64,000 nt of DNA from Candidatus Parcubacteria bacterium (GTDB lineage: Bacteria > Patescibacteriota > Minisyncoccia > Phycocordibacterales > UBA5272): positions 5,874-69,873 of the forward strand of contig JBDKJD010000001.1 of assembly GCA_039796775.1 (NCBI GenBank), read 5' to 3'. The translations under genes and the position numbers were made by a program. Positions 16,331 through 47,456 of this stretch are shown one piece after another; the first letter of the stretch is position 1; the number at the start of each line of letters is the position of its first letter. The notes under the pieces were generated by a model that was not told the DNA's origin, did no database searches, and was given only the letters and a program-made list of their open reading frames with translations.

Positions 16331-16681
16331 TTAGTGGTTATTTGAGATAACCTTTACTATCGCTTCTGCAATCTCTTTTGCATGTGTTTCCACTAGTATA
16401 TTCGGTATATGTTTTACAAAAATATCTTCCTTGTTTGAAAAGTAGTCTCTATGAAAATCTGCATCTATTTGTGATGCGTTAAGGTAATGCTGCGCCCCAT
16501 CAATTTCAAGAGCAATCTTTGCCTTTGGTATATAAATATCAATATGTTTGTGTCCATCCCAGTATTCAAGTTCTAGATCAACACCAAGTGCTTTAAGCTC
16601 ACTTGCTAGTAATAATGCTTGAGGTGTTGATTGTATTAGTGGCATAAAAAATAAACAACTGAAATACAAAAAGCCCACCAC
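16331..16681 (-). CDS. DUF559 / endonuclease-domain protein.
   Basis: KIALEIDGAQHY...DADFHRDYF...VKHIPN fits the DUF559 restriction-endonuclease-like fold pattern. Confidence 0.55.
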   Translation of the reverse strand: MVGFLYFSCLFFMPLIQSTPQALLLASELKALGVDLELEYWDGHKHIDIYIPKAKIALEIDGAQHYLNASQIDADFHRDYFSNKEDIFVKHIPNILVETHAKEIAEAIVKVISNNH

Positions 16682-16880
16682 GTGAGTGAGAGCTTACGCC
16701 CTCCATACCCGTTTCCAGGTACGGCCGTTCAAGACAAATCCCACATGATGGGTTTTTTATTTTGAACGGGCTTTTCACCATGCCAATATTGCTATTGGTT
16801 TAGGCTACTTGTATTCAGTTGTATCTATATAATAACGTAGAAAATGACAAAATAAAAGAAATTAAGTAGTATACAGGGCA

Positions 16881-32729: not shown

Positions 32730-32754
32730 CTAATTATCTACGGAAGGCAAAGGT

Positions 32755-32797
32755 CTCCCTTTATTAATAAATTAAATAGAGGGAGATTTTTATTTTG
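32755..32797 (+). terminator. Rho-independent terminator of proS.
   Basis: tctccct-N19-agggaga is followed by tttttatttt. Confidence 0.6.
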
Positions 32798-33917
32798 AGG
32801 AAATGGTATACATATGATCATATATGAATAAAAAGAGGTTTAAATAATTGTTTATTTATAAGTATCGAATTAATCTAATAGTTAAAAATACATTGTTTTA
32901 TAATGCCATAATATCAATTAATAAATAATTAAAATGGGATGCAAATTAACATCTAAAATCTACTCATAGTATAGAAAAGCGTGTCTATTACTCATACACC
33001 GCTTTGATGATGACTGAGTTATTCAAAAATATACAAAGGTTTATATAAGGGAAGCTGAGCACAAAATCAATTCTATTGCTTATAGATTTTGAAGATTATA
33101 TTTGTTCAGACTTTTTTATATATAATCTTTATAGAAGCTATCTAATTAAAGGGATATATCCATCCATGAATACAAAGAAGAGAGTATAGGTAGCCAACAA
33201 TATCGAGACCAAGGATTGTAAGGGTATATATCATTAAAGAAGGCCATGATAAGACCTATGCGAAAAAGTTAACTAGAGGCTGATAGGAAGGCACACGATA
33301 TAGAATACTTTTAGAATTAACTTTTTGAAATGATTCTATTAATAGACACTGATCAAACATGGGTCACGGAGTAGGGATATAGAGAAGTAGAACTGTATGG
33401 CTGACAGAATTATTTTTAATATAAGAGACAATGTTAAAAGTGCTTTAGATATATAGTTATTAAAAGGGGTTTTGTTATATATCTAATGTCGCACAATATA
33501 TCTTTTACGACTATATATCCTATAATAAGGCTTTACCCCTAAACTTCGTTAGCTTAATTTCGCTCACATTAAACTTGATTAACAGAAAAGATTACAACCA
33601 AGTAAGACTAGGTTATCTGGGAGTACTTACACTATAGCAACCTGTATGCATAAAGTCCTTACGGTTAATATACAAAGAAAATTAATTTCCAAGACTTCTC
33701 TTTATATAAATGGTTTAATACACCTGTACGCAAGATAGCATAATATCTTTTACATGAAAGAACGAAGTTGAAGAAATAAGAGATTAAACCTCTAACCCCT
33801 TTTCTACTGGCTTAGATTTTATTAAGACACAGCTCTTTATGTATCATCTACTAATTTTTTAACCAAAAAGCTATGATAATTTATCCTTATCTTCTTTGGA
33901 TTATACTGGGGGGTGTT

Positions 33918-34019
33918 TTACTTTATCTTATTCAAAATAATCCAAAGCCCTAGAAGTAGTCCAGCAATATATGAAGCAACAGCTAGGAGTATAAAAGATG
34001 GTAATGTGAAAGTTATCAT
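33918..34019 (-). CDS. Small hydrophobic peptide of 33 aa (MITFTLPSFILLAVASYIAGLLLGLWIILNKIK).
   Basis: It is a paralogue of the adjacent peptide, has a single transmembrane helix and ends in KIK. Confidence 0.4.
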   Translation of the reverse strand: MITFTLPSFILLAVASYIAGLLLGLWIILNKIK

Positions 34020-34047
34020 ATACGTAAGTAGTGTTAAGACTATAAAG

Positions 34048-34158
34048 TTACTTCACTTTAAGATAATAAAGATAAACTCCAATGCTTGATGTTAGTGCTC
34101 CAAAAATAAAAATAGCACTGAGTAGTAATATGGCTCCTGGTAAAGTGAAAGTGATCAT
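34048..34158 (-). CDS. Small hydrophobic peptide of 36 aa (MITFTLPGAILLLSAIFIFGALTSSIGVYLYYLKVK).
   Basis: Its first seven residues are identical to the downstream paralogue. The two genes are in tandem, 28 nt apart. Confidence 0.4.
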   Translation of the reverse strand: MITFTLPGAILLLSAIFIFGALTSSIGVYLYYLKVK

Positions 34159-34184
34159 ATCTATATAATTTTGTTTATAGTATA

Positions 34185-43678: not shown

Positions 43679-44131
43679 TCATTTCCCGACTTGTTGAGAC
43701 CCAAGTGGATAAGAGAGTGTTGATCTGTAATCCTCAACGGGGAAAATTGTCGGTATTTTCTTCATCACACCATCTGTGTATGCTTCAACGATACCAATTT
43801 TTTGCCCAGGTTGTAGAGCTACGATGTACACATCTGGCTTGCCGACATTTCCTTCCCAGAAGACGACGGTGTTAGCCCCTTTCCGTCCTGCGGCTGCAAC
43901 ACACTGAGCAACGGTTACTTTCTCACCAATTCGACGAAACGCTGCGATACATGATTCCCCTTTTTTCACAAAGGTGAATGTGCCGTGTTTCAACGTTGTG
44001 CCTTCTTTAACAACTGGCACAAAGTAGCCAACACCGAGTGCCACACCAACGTCTTCTGCTTTCAGATCAGTTTTGCCAGCAAATGAAATCGCTGAAAAAA
44101 CAATAGAAAACAAAATAATTACTTTTTTCAC
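43679..44131 (-). CDS. Hypothetical secreted protein.
   Basis: A signal peptide MKKVIILFSIVFSAISFAG is present. No family is recognised. Confidence 0.5.
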   Translation of the reverse strand: MKKVIILFSIVFSAISFAGKTDLKAEDVGVALGVGYFVPVVKEGTTLKHGTFTFVKKGESCIAAFRRIGEKVTVAQCVAAAGRKGANTVVFWEGNVGKPDVYIVALQPGQKIGIVEAYTDGVMKKIPTIFPVEDYRSTLSYPLGSQQVGK

Positions 44132-44231: not shown

Positions 44232-45644
44232 TTAGACTTTCTTCTTTGTTTCAATTCCGAGCTCACGTAGAACTTTTGCTGTTGCAACAGACGGCGCTTG
44301 CATAAGAAGATCCTTGCCTTCGCCAGTTTTAGGGAATGCCATCACTTCGCGGATATTAGGCTCATTAAGAAGGATCATGAGTAGTCTATCTAGCCCCCAG
44401 GCGATACCACCGTGTGGCGGAGTGCCCGATCCAAGTGCCTCTAACATGTGACCGAAGTTCTGATTAATCCTCTCTTCACTATATCCCATGATTTCAAATA
44501 CACGACGTAATGCGACAGGGTCATGAAGTCTAATACCTCCTCCCCCTATCTCATAACCATTAAGTGCAATATCATATTGGGTTGAGATAATGGCTTCGAT
44601 ATTTTTCTTTTCTAAGAGGTCATTCTTGTACTCATCGAGCACGCCTGTAAACGGATTATGCGTGAATGTCCACGCACCTGTGTCATCTACGTTGTCTTCC
44701 CCTGTTTTTTCAAATGCAGGAAAGTCTGTCACCCAACAGAATGCTAGTAAGTTAGGATCATTCTTGTCTTCTCTAATATCAGGCTTATCACTTCCATACT
44801 TTTCCATCACTTCTTTGTATGTAAAGCGTGGGAACGGTACCTGCTGAATACGTTTCTCTGGGAAAAGTGTTGTAACTATTTTTATCAAAAGATCTTCGTT
44901 TACTTTCATGACATCTTCTCTTTCGACGAAGCTCATCTCCAAGTCCATTTGAGTGAATTCAGGCTGACGATCACCTCGTGTGTCTTCGTCACGCATACAC
45001 TTAGCAATCTGGAAGTATCGTTCAAATCCTGAAGACATGAGAAGCTGCTTGTACTGCTGTGGTGACTGTGGAAGGGCGTAGAATGTTCCCTGCCAGATAC
45101 GAGATGGTACGAGATATGAGCGAGACCCTTCTGGCGTAGGGTTAGTTAGGAGCGGGGTTTCGATTTCAAAGAAGTTTTGCTTGTCTAACTCGTCACGCAC
45201 AAGCTTGATAACCTTGTGACGCATCTGCACATTTCTCTGTAGACGCGCACGACGAAGGTCAAGATATTTTTTTTCTAATCTTACCTCTTCGCTTACTTCA
45301 TACCCATCAGTTGAGATATCAAACGCAGGTGTCGCGGCTTCATTAAGCACGGTAATAGCGAGCACCTCTAGCTCAACGTCCCCATTAACGACATCCGCCT
45401 TTATATTCTTTTCCGGGCGCTTATTGACCTTGCCTTTGACTTCTACTACCCATTCTGGACGAATCTTTTGAGCTATCTCGAGGGCTTCTGTGTGGAATGG
45501 AAGGACAACACCCTGTACCTTCCCTGTCACATCACGAAAGTCTAGGAACACCATTTTTCCTTGATCACGTCTCACATCCACCCAAGCTTTGATAATAATT
45601 TCTTGTCCAACAGATGAAGAAATAGTGTTAATATAGGTACGCAT
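44232..45644 (-). CDS. aspS: Aspartyl-tRNA synthetase, short archaeal-type without the GAD insertion.
   Basis: It has an N-terminal OB fold, motif 1 FYALPQSPQQYKQLLM, and FRDED. Its 470 aa length is too short for the long bacterial form. Confidence 0.85.
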   Translation of the reverse strand: MRTYINTISSSVGQEIIIKAWVDVRRDQGKMVFLDFRDVTGKVQGVVLPFHTEALEIAQKIRPEWVVEVKGKVNKRPEKNIKADVVNGDVELEVLAITVLNEAATPAFDISTDGYEVSEEVRLEKKYLDLRRARLQRNVQMRHKVIKLVRDELDKQNFFEIETPLLTNPTPEGSRSYLVPSRIWQGTFYALPQSPQQYKQLLMSSGFERYFQIAKCMRDEDTRGDRQPEFTQMDLEMSFVEREDVMKVNEDLLIKIVTTLFPEKRIQQVPFPRFTYKEVMEKYGSDKPDIREDKNDPNLLAFCWVTDFPAFEKTGEDNVDDTGAWTFTHNPFTGVLDEYKNDLLEKKNIEAIISTQYDIALNGYEIGGGGIRLHDPVALRRVFEIMGYSEERINQNFGHMLEALGSGTPPHGGIAWGLDRLLMILLNEPNIREVMAFPKTGEGKDLLMQAPSVATAKVLRELGIETKKKV

Positions 45645-45680: not shown

Positions 45681-45714
45681 AAAAAAAGAAGCCCCCGCGA
45701 GTACGCGGGGGGGG
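45681..45714 (-). terminator. Rho-independent terminator.
   Basis: ccccccccgcg-tact-cgcgggggc is followed by ttcttttttt on the minus strand. Confidence 0.55.
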
Positions 45715-45746: not shown

Positions 45747-46388
45747 CTAATGCGTGATTAAGAACCAAACCAAAACCATCAGGAGCTCATGGATAAAGGA
45801 TGACCACAGGAAAACCTTTCTTCCTTTCAAAGCTGTGGGCGTTCTTGCAAAAGACGAATCGGCGAAGGCGAAGGCGACGAAGGCGAAGGCGGTGGCGGCG
45901 AGGGTCACGAAGGCGGCGAAGGTGACGCCGAGGGTGACGAAGGCGGCGAAGGTGACGCAGAAGGCGACGCCGGCGAAGGCGAAGGCGACGAAGGCGAAGG
46001 CGTTGGTGGTAAGGGTGAAGAAACACCGAATCAAAAAGAAACATACCGACAAGAACATAAAGATCATCCCCGCCAAAACAAAGATAATTTTTTTTTGAAA
46101 AACTTCTTGTAGCTCTTCTTGTTCACCTCCACTTTCCACCAGCTTTTTTTGTATCGGGTCTGCAGTGATCATCACAGCAGCAGTACACAATTCCTTCTTG
46201 TGAAACCATGACCTCTCAAGTGTCACACACCTTCTTGGGGACAACTCCTTAGACTGTCCGTCATAAAGAACTATCCTGGTGGGGGCTGGTCCCCCGTACT
46301 GATAGTCGGCTTCAGACAACTTTTCGGCATGTGCTGAAAGCGTCAATAGCAAACCAATGAGAAAAACAATGCTACGAACAAAGGACAT
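45747..46388 (-). CDS. Hypothetical exported or membrane protein containing an AFAFVAFA-type hydrophobic repeat. The coding strand is ambiguous.
   Basis: It is the longest ORF across the repeat. A signal peptide MSFVRSIVFLIGLLLTLSAHA is present. It is co-oriented with its neighbours. A Lys/Ala-rich ORF overlaps on the plus strand. Confidence 0.45.
   Translation of the reverse strand: MSFVRSIVFLIGLLLTLSAHAEKLSEADYQYGGPAPTRIVLYDGQSKELSPRRCVTLERSWFHKKELCTAAVMITADPIQKKLVESGGEQEELQEVFQKKIIFVLAGMIFMFLSVCFFLIRCFFTLTTNAFAFVAFAFAGVAFCVTFAAFVTLGVTFAAFVTLAATAFAFVAFAFADSSFARTPTALKGRKVFLWSSFIHELLMVLVWFLITH
45860..45990. repeat. GC-rich tandem repeat block: heptamer-like gaaggcg units and ~27-nt units arranged A-B-B'-A.
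   Basis: ggcgaaggcgaaggcgacgaaggcgaaggcg occurs at both ends. gtSacgaaggcggcgaaggtgacgc occurs twice in the middle. Confidence 0.6.
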
Positions 46389-46454
46389 AATGTCCTCCTT
46401 TCTTTAAAAATGAGCTTGAAAAATAACTCTACTGTAGAATATACATCAAACAAG

Positions 46455-47456
46455 CTAATTTGTCAACCCTACCTGCTCTCTTACTTGAGACATCGTAATC
46501 TGTGCTTTTGCTCGGGCTCTTTGCCCCCCTTCTTCAAGAATCGCAACGATTTGATCCTGATTATTCATTAAGTCGTCGAACTTTTCTTTCTTGCCTTCGC
46601 GCCACTTCATAATGGTTATGAGCAGATCTTCTTTTGCTTCTTTATATCCATACGAAACACCTTCTCTTTCTCCTGTCTGTTCAAACTTGACACGAAGTGC
46701 TACTTGGCCCGCTTCGTCTAGGAAGTGTTTATGAATATTAAAAATATTATTCTCATCTGCGTTCTTTTTGTCTTCTGGACGAGCAGAATCTGTGACGATT
46801 CCCATCACGGCTTTCTTCACCTCTTCATCTGAGCCAAAAAGTGATACAACATTCCCTTTGCTCTTACTCATCTTCGCACCATCTATCCCAGGAATAGTTG
46901 CAACAGAGTCGAGAATCATTTCTTTTGGAAGCTTGAACTGCTCTATGTTCAAAGCACGATTGTAGAACCCCGCGATATCACGCGCATACTCTACGTGCTG
47001 TTTCTGGTCTGCGCCTACTGGTACCACATCTGCCTGATACATAAGGATGTCCGCCGCCATAAGAACCGGGTAATCGAAGAGGCCGAGGTTAACTTCTTTG
47101 TCTTTCGCCTCATGGTCCTTAAATGCATGCGCGCGCATAAGGTATGGCATAGTCACCACATTGTTAAATATCCACGTGAGTTCTGTGTGCTCCGGAACTG
47201 ATGACTGACGGAAGAGTGTAGCCTTGGAGAGGTCGAGTCCGCATGCGATATATGCAGCCGCTATTTCAAGCGCGCTTTCACGGAGCGCCCGCTTATCCTT
47301 CACTGTAGTGAGAGCGTGATAATCAGCGATAAAAATATACGCCTCATAGTCACCACTATTTGCGAGGTCGATGTTTTGTTTCATTGCACCAAAGTAATTA
47401 CCAAAATGAAGCTTACCTGTTGCTTGAATTCCTGAAAGTAGAACTTTTTGTGACAT
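46455..47456 (-). CDS. trpS: Tryptophanyl-tRNA synthetase.
   Basis: GIQATGKLHFGNY (HIGH-type) and KMSKSKGN are present. Confidence 0.9.
   Translation of the reverse strand: MSQKVLLSGIQATGKLHFGNYFGAMKQNIDLANSGDYEAYIFIADYHALTTVKDKRALRESALEIAAAYIACGLDLSKATLFRQSSVPEHTELTWIFNNVVTMPYLMRAHAFKDHEAKDKEVNLGLFDYPVLMAADILMYQADVVPVGADQKQHVEYARDIAGFYNRALNIEQFKLPKEMILDSVATIPGIDGAKMSKSKGNVVSLFGSDEEVKKAVMGIVTDSARPEDKKNADENNIFNIHKHFLDEAGQVALRVKFEQTGEREGVSYGYKEAKEDLLITIMKWREGKKEKFDDLMNNQDQIVAILEEGGQRARAKAQITMSQVREQVGLTN

Follow-up and report, generated by a model that had tools for sequence, protein, structure and literature searches.

The stretch of DNA under study, hereafter the window, comprises 64,000 nucleotides (nt) of the Candidatus Parcubacteria contig JBDKJD010000001.1 (GenBank assembly GCA_039796775.1, positions 5,874 to 69,873 of the forward strand). 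The subject of this analysis is a gene on its minus strand that encodes a predicted membrane protein precursor and carries a GC-rich repeat block. The product is deposited in GenBank as MEN9551672.1, 'hypothetical protein RI935_49', from a Candidatus Parcubacteria metagenome-assembled genome. An initial annotation had noted that the two strands of the repeat give different repetitive proteins, a hydrophobic one on the minus strand and a lysine- and alanine-rich one on the plus strand. It favoured the minus strand, and it suggested that the number of repeat units could vary by slippage. All of the elements it named, i.e., the repeat block and both open reading frames (ORFs), were found where it had placed them (Table 1).

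The repeat block occupies positions 45860-46002, making it 143 nt long rather than the ~130 nt first estimated, and has a guanine plus cytosine (GC) content of 71.3%. This is the highest value among all 143-nt windows of the 64 kb (mean 38.3%, standard deviation 5.8%), and windows of this size with more than 60% GC all lie inside 45797-46054, with none elsewhere in the 64 kb. The two outer units are identical, as had been annotated, and read CGGCGAAGGCGAAGGCGACGAAGGCGAAGGCG in plus-strand letters, whereas the inner units proved to be 30 nt long instead of ~27 nt. In the protein the block forms most of a predicted hairpin of two membrane helices, with the order A (residues 130-139), B (CVTFAAFVTL, 144-153), B' (GVTFAAFVTL, 154-163) and A again (167-176). 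Tandem Repeats Finder reported periods of 6, 9, 12, 21 and 30 nt in the block, each a multiple of three, and the periods of the homologous repeats (6-54 nt) are multiples of three throughout. Neither homopolymer nor dinucleotide tracts occur within the array. When its 51 codons were shuffled 500 times the longest exact repeat averaged 13.2 nt and reached 20 nt at most, against the 31-32 nt observed, therefore the repeats are not a mere by-product of a narrow codon set. Separately, the starts of the two outer direct repeats are separated by 111 nt, or 37 codons. A deletion between them would be in frame, take out roughly the residues of one hairpin and leave a 176-aa protein with one pair of helix segments fewer.

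Table 1. Features of the repeat-bearing gene and its surroundings, in window coordinates (aa, amino acids)
Feature	Position	Strand	Description and basis
Gene, membrane protein precursor	45747..46388	-	213 aa, MSFVRSIVFLIGLLLTLSAHA...; ORF and homologues
Promoter-like sequence	46438..46466	-	TTGACA-17-TATATT; 11/12 consensus matches; overlaps the last trpS codons; consensus match only
Shine-Dalgarno-like sequence	46394..46399	-	AGGAGG; 5 nt before the ATG; read from sequence
Intrinsic-terminator-like hairpin	45692..45711	-	Stem of 8 G-C pairs, then a T run; 36 nt past the stop codon
Predicted signal peptide	46326..46388	-	Residues 1-21, ending AHA; hydropathy, cleavage inferred
Predicted extracytoplasmic all-beta domain	46095..46325	-	Residues 22-98; G44, C54, C68, ESGGE
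Predicted membrane helix 1	46017..46094	-	Residues 99-124; hydropathy and AlphaFold2
(NNC)n array, predicted helix 2-helix 3 hairpin	45861..46013	-	Residues 126-176; 49/51 codons end in C
Outer repeat unit A1	45971..46002	-	32 nt; AFAFVAFAFA, residues 130-139; start of helix 2
Inner repeat units B and B'	45900-45929, 45930-45959	-	Tandem, 30 nt each; 28/30 bases alike
Outer repeat unit A2	45860..45891	-	32 nt, identical to A1; residues 167-176; end of helix 3
Basic loop (KGRK) and predicted C-terminal helix 4	45750..45860	-	Residues 177-213; alignment and AlphaFold2
Antisense ORF	45754..46098	+	114 aa, Lys/Ala-rich, ...AKAKATKAKAVAARVTKAAKVT...; GTG start; mirror of the NNC hydrophobic codons

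The protein belongs to a family of about 13 sequences, all 13 of them full length, with 17-54% identity to one another outside the hairpin. An exhaustive phmmer search recovered eight homologues of 190-206 aa (E-values of 6.7e-12 to 6e-4), where a word-indexed search had returned the window protein itself as its sole match. Further members were one protein in the related locus L063 and two clusters found with a profile of the non-repeat part (loci and proteins are given L and P numbers below). The common layout is a signal peptide, a domain of ~77 residues bearing ESGGE, a helix, a variable hydrophobic low-complexity stretch, a K-x-K-K loop and a helix with YE.LM; an FY motif is also common to the C-terminal part. 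G44, C54 and C68 are invariant in the alignment, and the shared motifs lie in the non-repeat parts. The window protein has every feature by which the family is defined here (signal peptide, beta domain, four helices, loop and YE.LM), and it is the most divergent member known. When the family profile, which includes the window protein, was run against all ORFs of the loci, the window protein was matched at an E-value of 2.3e-61. The family itself is unannotated, confined to Parcubacteria/Paceibacterota as far as its known members go, and first defined here; a literature search on it, or on NNC-coded hydrophobic arrays, found nothing specific. One candidate assignment was set aside, namely the LptF/LptG permease family (PF03739). 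Its score of 23.5 bits fell short of the Pfam gathering threshold (27.9), the match was confined to the hydrophobic region and to one of 10 members, and we regard it as a match of hydrophobic composition.

Structure prediction points to a four-helix membrane protein with a small exposed domain. The AlphaFold2 model of the whole protein (nine sequences, predicted local distance difference test score (pLDDT) of 71.9) places helices at residues 99-124, 129-153, 156-178 and 184-212, together with a signal helix and beta strands within 46-97, and the beta domain modelled alone gave eight strands with a pLDDT of 81.7. The plausible signal peptide of the initial annotation was borne out by an N-terminal hydrophobic leader in every homologue, most of which end in small residues (Ala/Gly/Ser) resembling a signal-peptidase I site. 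The conserved pair C54/C68 probably forms a disulfide. The beta domain would lie outside the cell and, by the positive-inside rule, the basic loop before helix 4 inside. The predicted turn of the hairpin, at residues 154-155, coincides with the B/B' junction, so both copies of each unit would sit at a similar membrane depth. The most likely role of the protein is in binding at the cell surface, through an exposed domain that a bundle of four helices would anchor in the membrane. Foldseek searches with the whole model and with the domain returned no meaningful structural neighbour, the E-value never being better than 0.37. Among the top rows were claudin and TARP gamma, which likewise combine four membrane helices with a small extracellular beta structure, but these matches are not significant (E-values of at least 0.37, TM-scores of 0.22-0.29), there is no sequence relation, and their beta structure lies in a loop whereas the domain described here precedes helix 1.

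The position of the gene is shared among its relatives. In at least seven independent loci it directly follows trpS in the same orientation, as it does in the window, and aspS usually comes next; it sits between the two in L063, L085/86, L087 and L092-L098, and in L082 it follows trpS on a contig on which no aspS is annotated. P0009 (L088, 5001-5576) lies instead between the thymidylate synthase (thyA) and serine hydroxymethyltransferase (glyA) genes, from which it follows that the gene has relocated at least once. In about two-thirds of 80 related genomes trpS and aspS are neighbours, with a spacing of 36 bp to ~1.1 kb, and a profile search of all ORFs in these 80 trpS loci (L001-L080) found the family in L063 only. 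Given this variable spacing and cargo and the single occurrence, the gene is best described as an accessory gene in a variable slot. Elsewhere the slot holds a HIT-domain protein (L010, L079), a low-molecular-weight phosphatase (L006) or unannotated opposite-strand ORFs of 149-323 aa (L001, L002, L005, L007, L018), and examples of the spacer itself are L003 6567-6613 and L007 5379-6477. Two metagenome-contig scans and one viral-contig scan yielded no relatives or variants of the window gene, and an exact look-up of the window protein among contigs matched none.

Codon usage sets the hairpin apart from the rest of the protein and from its surroundings. Genome usage predicts 10.7 C-ending codons in the window hairpin, where there are 49 of 51, consisting of GCC (17), TTC (13), ACC (7), GTC (6) and a few others. 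In the window GCC, GTC and ACC account for 11%, 16% and 16% of their synonymous sets, and in its ribosomal-protein, DnaK and RpoA genes for 9%, 8% and 10%; being even rarer in highly expressed genes, they are not translationally preferred. A scan for transfer RNA (tRNA) genes found a single kind, tRNA-Asn, in the window and, sparsely, eight tRNAs in 60 related loci. Seven homologues have 51/53, 39/43, 54/63, 40/41, 34/42, 30/43 and 45/61 C-ending codons in their hairpins, P0008 has 26/50 and P0002 has 10/55, such that a low-complexity (NNC)n hairpin is present in 8-9 of 10 members. The initial annotation had not remarked on this codon pattern. The genes around the homologue loci have 11-25% C-ending codons, with GCC, GTC and ACC equally rare there, and the GC content of the host genomes is 38-48%. 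Over 988 kb (the window and loci, both strands), at least 85% C in one phase over 30 codons was found only in the hairpins of this family. Signal peptide, helix 1 and helix 4 of the family proteins have 15-22% C-ending codons, hence the pattern is not general to their membrane segments. The residues of the hairpin are not conserved, being rich in A/F/V in the window protein and in A/T/I or A/T/V in others. At 17-54% identity outside the hairpin, synonymous sites should be saturated or have drifted to T or A, which implies that something holds the third-base C. The codons are thus rare in the genome and their position is kept among homologues, as expected of a conserved rare-codon cluster, which would in addition slow translation.

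Change in repeat number was observed directly in a homologous locus. Over 8,621 bp, L092 and L098/L063 align without a mismatch, and their only gap corresponds to an additional 9-nt tandem copy of GCCTTCTCC. This insertion or deletion (indel) is in frame and within the hairpin, and the contigs derive from different samples; accordingly P0012 (203 aa) and P0010 (206 aa) differ solely by Ser-Ala-Phe in the hairpin. Hence the copy number of a coding repeat whose units keep the frame differs between close strains, as is the case for in-frame coding variable number tandem repeats (VNTRs), and in the L092/L098 segment the observation is consistent with gain and loss of hairpin units being faster than point mutation. 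The proposal of a contingency locus in the initial annotation therefore stands in one part, i.e., unit-number change by slippage, for which this homologous indel speaks, and falls in the other, since all periods and the indel itself are multiples of three and on/off switching is not to be expected from them. Exact repeats were also longer than expected in several hairpins, as repeats at least as long as those observed arose in 0/500 codon shuffles for the window, 1/500 for L063, 2/500 for P0005, 7/500 for P0007 and 2/1000 for P0009; for P0003, P0004, P0006, P0008 and P0002 the test was not significant.

A further allele differs in another part of the gene. L099 922-1542 and L092 4001-4621 differ at 31 nt with 16 amino-acid changes. 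All 31 differences fall in the first 211 nt, the part that encodes the signal peptide and the beta domain; the last 410 nt are identical. Such a sharp mosaic boundary suggests either recombination or diversifying selection on the exposed domain. Both length alleles (203 and 206 aa) are present on two N-terminal backgrounds, which would require intragenic recombination or recurrent slippage.

As to which strand is translated, the homologues settle the question in favour of the minus strand, as far as this can be judged from sequence. The signal peptide, the Cys-Cys beta domain and the membrane helices recur in about 13 relatives, which occupy the same trpS-aspS slot in the same orientation, in agreement with the strand favoured at the outset. 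A terminator downstream had also been cited for this strand, and a hairpin followed by a T run was found; together with the promoter-like and AGGAGG sequences it reads as the signals of a separate transcription unit. On the plus strand, antisense frames are open over the hairpin in most homologues, but neither the sequence, the length nor the start of the peptide is conserved: depending on the member it is K/A/T-rich or hydrophobic, and in P0002 a long antisense ORF across the hairpin is absent. NNC codons whose second base is C or T cannot yield antisense stops, and so the antisense frames are automatically open. The plus ORF has no Pfam match and no Shine-Dalgarno sequence before the GTG at 45754, and it opposes the orientation of all neighbouring genes. 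The histone H1-like Lys/Ala protein proposed for this strand, together with a reading of it as a DNA-binding protein, was consequently abandoned, as it is not conserved in related loci and has neither a match to a known family nor a ribosome-binding site. On these comparisons the plus-strand ORF appears to be an artefact of the complement and not a gene.

With the coding strand, the family and its gene order, the codon pattern and an in-frame length variant of a homologue established, we consider it likely that the block is an in-frame, slippage-prone coding repeat that forms the membrane hairpin of a real accessory surface protein. The hairpin of this family is a low-complexity Ala/Phe/Val/Thr/Ile array in which nearly all codons end in C, a choice that these AT-rich genomes otherwise make rarely. 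Units of 9-30 nt, each a whole number of codons, may be gained and lost by slipped-strand mispairing or by recombination between short direct repeats, so that the length and composition of the hairpin would change quickly while frame and hydrophobic character are retained. From the homologous locus we infer that slippage also operates in the window's own gene. The cause we favour for the third-base C is that GC-rich units may form stabler slipped intermediates and out-propagate AT-rich ones; selected slow decoding would be the alternative cause. A stronger form of this reading, in which maintenance of the (NNC)n array throughout the family would render a membrane helical hairpin length-tunable at a high rate, is tentative and in our view rather doubtful. 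The array would then be maintained by a self-propagating GC-rich triplet bias or by selection for slow decoding at membrane insertion.

Several points weigh against the slippage-prone repeat as we have described it. The window gene is a single sequence on record and its repeat number may be fixed, and its outer 32-nt units, at 111 nt apart, are not tandem, so simple slippage fails to account for them. Slippage alone also leaves the C-ending codons unexplained, and P0003 (96% C-ending) and P0004 (91%) have the pattern without repeats beyond the codon-shuffle level. P0002 has an ordinary hairpin with ordinary codons, which indicates that the fold does not depend on the array. The structure models were built from alignments of 9-11 sequences and are of moderate confidence, the coding strand is known here from sequence and homology only, and family members shared no match in Pfam, NCBIfam, PHROGs, PADLOC or PDB sequences, nor in the fold searches.

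Among the other explanations, an unlikely one is that the hairpin carries a selected, conserved rare-codon cluster, which slows ribosomes while the hydrophobic helix 2-helix 3 hairpin is made and so aids its insertion, with the repeats as a side effect. This would contest only the preferential slippage and not the gene model. Position-specific conservation of rare-codon clusters is a described phenomenon (PMC5438181). The hairpin codons are the rarest synonymous choices both in the window, highly expressed genes included, and in the homologue loci, their position is shared by 8-9 of 10 members at 17-54% identity, other hydrophobic segments of the same proteins are without the pattern, and it persists in P0003 and P0004, which have no detectable recent repeats. 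However, the step from rarity to slow decoding is presumed, the tRNA genes seen in the window and related loci being as few as given above, and P0002 and P0008 cope with ordinary codons. Described ribosome pause sites are moreover much shorter than 50 consecutive codons, such that a pause over 50 would far exceed them, and a strain-level 9-nt indel is not predicted by this explanation. A classical contingency locus, in which frame-shifting slippage switches the gene on and off or between the products of the two strands, seems very improbable to us. It would account for a short-unit tandem repeat within an ORF and for length polymorphism between near-identical strains in a homologue, but the periods in window and homologues are multiples of three, the sole polymorphism is 9 nt and in frame, 13 of 13 family sequences are full length, and the array lacks the homopolymer or dinucleotide tracts already mentioned.

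Frozen third positions would also be explained by an overlapping constraint, if the plus 114-aa ORF or the in-register Gly/Glu/Asp-rich antisense frame were translated, and antisense frames are indeed open in most members. Such dual coding is nevertheless highly improbable, given that open frames are automatic and that the antisense peptides are unconserved, lack a Shine-Dalgarno sequence and a family match, and run against the direction of the neighbours. Diversity-generating retroelements are common in candidate-phyla bacteria, and the array could be imagined as the variable region of one, in which adenine mutagenesis of AAC template codons gives NNC, although only the NNC periodicity speaks for it. 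No template-like copy was found in the 64 kb (the best non-self match has 38 true matches over 151 nt), and a scan of 26 neighbouring proteins revealed no reverse transcriptase. The exact 32-nt internal repeats are not expected from random mutagenesis, the last 410 nt, which include the hairpin, show no substitutions between diverged alleles against 31 in the first 211 nt, and the middle codon base is almost never A; we therefore give this explanation next to no credence. The same low standing applies to the GC-rich block being a non-coding element, e.g., a structured RNA or a repeat of the CRISPR (clustered regularly interspaced short palindromic repeats) or another kind, that happens to lie within an ORF. 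A GC-rich island in an AT-rich genome is often an RNA gene, but there is no Rfam match at the locus (the two matches in the window lie elsewhere), no inverted repeats are present, the folding z-scores are 0.13 (sense) and -1.66 (antisense), and triplet periodicity and hydrophobic coding are conserved in the homologues.

Seen against known systems, the slippage-prone hairpin repeat is closest in kind to the in-frame coding VNTRs of bacterial surface and membrane-protein genes, which likewise have multiple-of-three units in an ORF, differ in copy number between strains and keep the frame. These known cases are mostly in exposed, disordered or stalk regions, whereas the array described here lies in membrane helices, is a mosaic of units, and has a C-ending periodicity that outlasts recognisable repeats. 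With the classical contingency loci of Neisseria, Haemophilus and Campylobacter it shares a slippage-prone repeat in a gene for an envelope protein, but their defining property, a frame-shifting unit length, was tested for and is absent here. Codon-pure repeats such as GCC-coded polyalanine and the polymorphic repeats of mycobacterial PE_PGRS genes are similarly GC-rich, triplet-periodic, low-complexity coding DNA, and codon homogeneity in such repeats is read as a sign of slippage-driven growth; the likeness to codon-pure tracts goes no further than form. In contrast, the present arrays occur in genomes of 38-48% GC, use a mixed A/F/V/T/I set and form membrane helices, and they are neither single-residue nor Gly-rich. 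The conserved rare-codon clusters of PMC5438181 are likewise runs of genome-rare codons at the same position in homologues; here the run is ~40-60 consecutive NNC codons and coincides with a repeat, and the resemblance to what is described there is one of form only.

These results resolve the ambiguity of two-strand coding at this locus, and they carry a caution for the annotation of AT-rich genomes, since NNC hydrophobic codons make long and plausible antisense ORFs. The new family adds to a cell-surface biology of Parcubacteria that is almost unknown, and it offers a rare case of an in-frame slippage-prone repeat in membrane helices that is written in the rarest codons, in which the codon pattern is conserved and the amino acids are not. 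Should the third-position C be selected or self-propagating, it would provide a natural case for rare-codon control of insertion or for compositional drive; should it be neither, this would be an ordinary low-complexity membrane segment. If the length-tunable reading were true, episymbiotic candidate-phyla bacteria would possess a hypermutable repeat within the membrane helices of a surface protein, and the tunable hairpin would be paired with a mosaic, fast-changing extracellular domain.

The neighbourhood of the gene in the window is one of core housekeeping functions. It contains genes for ribosomal proteins, rpoA, grpE-dnaK-dnaJ, a sodium:solute symporter, an SPFH protein and trpS ahead of the gene itself, and aspS, a GH18 enzyme, scpAB, a PBP5-like carboxypeptidase, mraY, ftsW, murG, gltX and an M23 peptidase. 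The aspartyl-tRNA synthetase (44232-45644, minus strand) is short at 470 aa, with Pfam matches to the anticodon-binding OB fold and class II core only, and this short form (matches of ~463-472 residues) also occurs in related loci in which aspS was matched at 50% identity or more. Directly after aspS lies a 150-aa ORF (43679-44131, minus strand) that begins with a hydrophobic leader and is without a Pfam match; weak relatives of it occur at the corresponding place in L001 and L003-L005. A stretch of 1.45 kb (32730-34184) is devoid of ORFs of at least 60 aa; two adjacent small hydrophobic minus-strand ORFs within it, 33918-34019 (33 aa) and 34048-34158 (36 aa), share the start MITFTLP and lie immediately upstream of the M23 peptidase gene. 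Elsewhere in the window, a full-length LOOT RNA (Rfam RF03000) was matched at 16688-16806 on the minus strand with 85.7 bits against a gathering threshold of 46.4, just after a 116-aa ORF (16331-16681).

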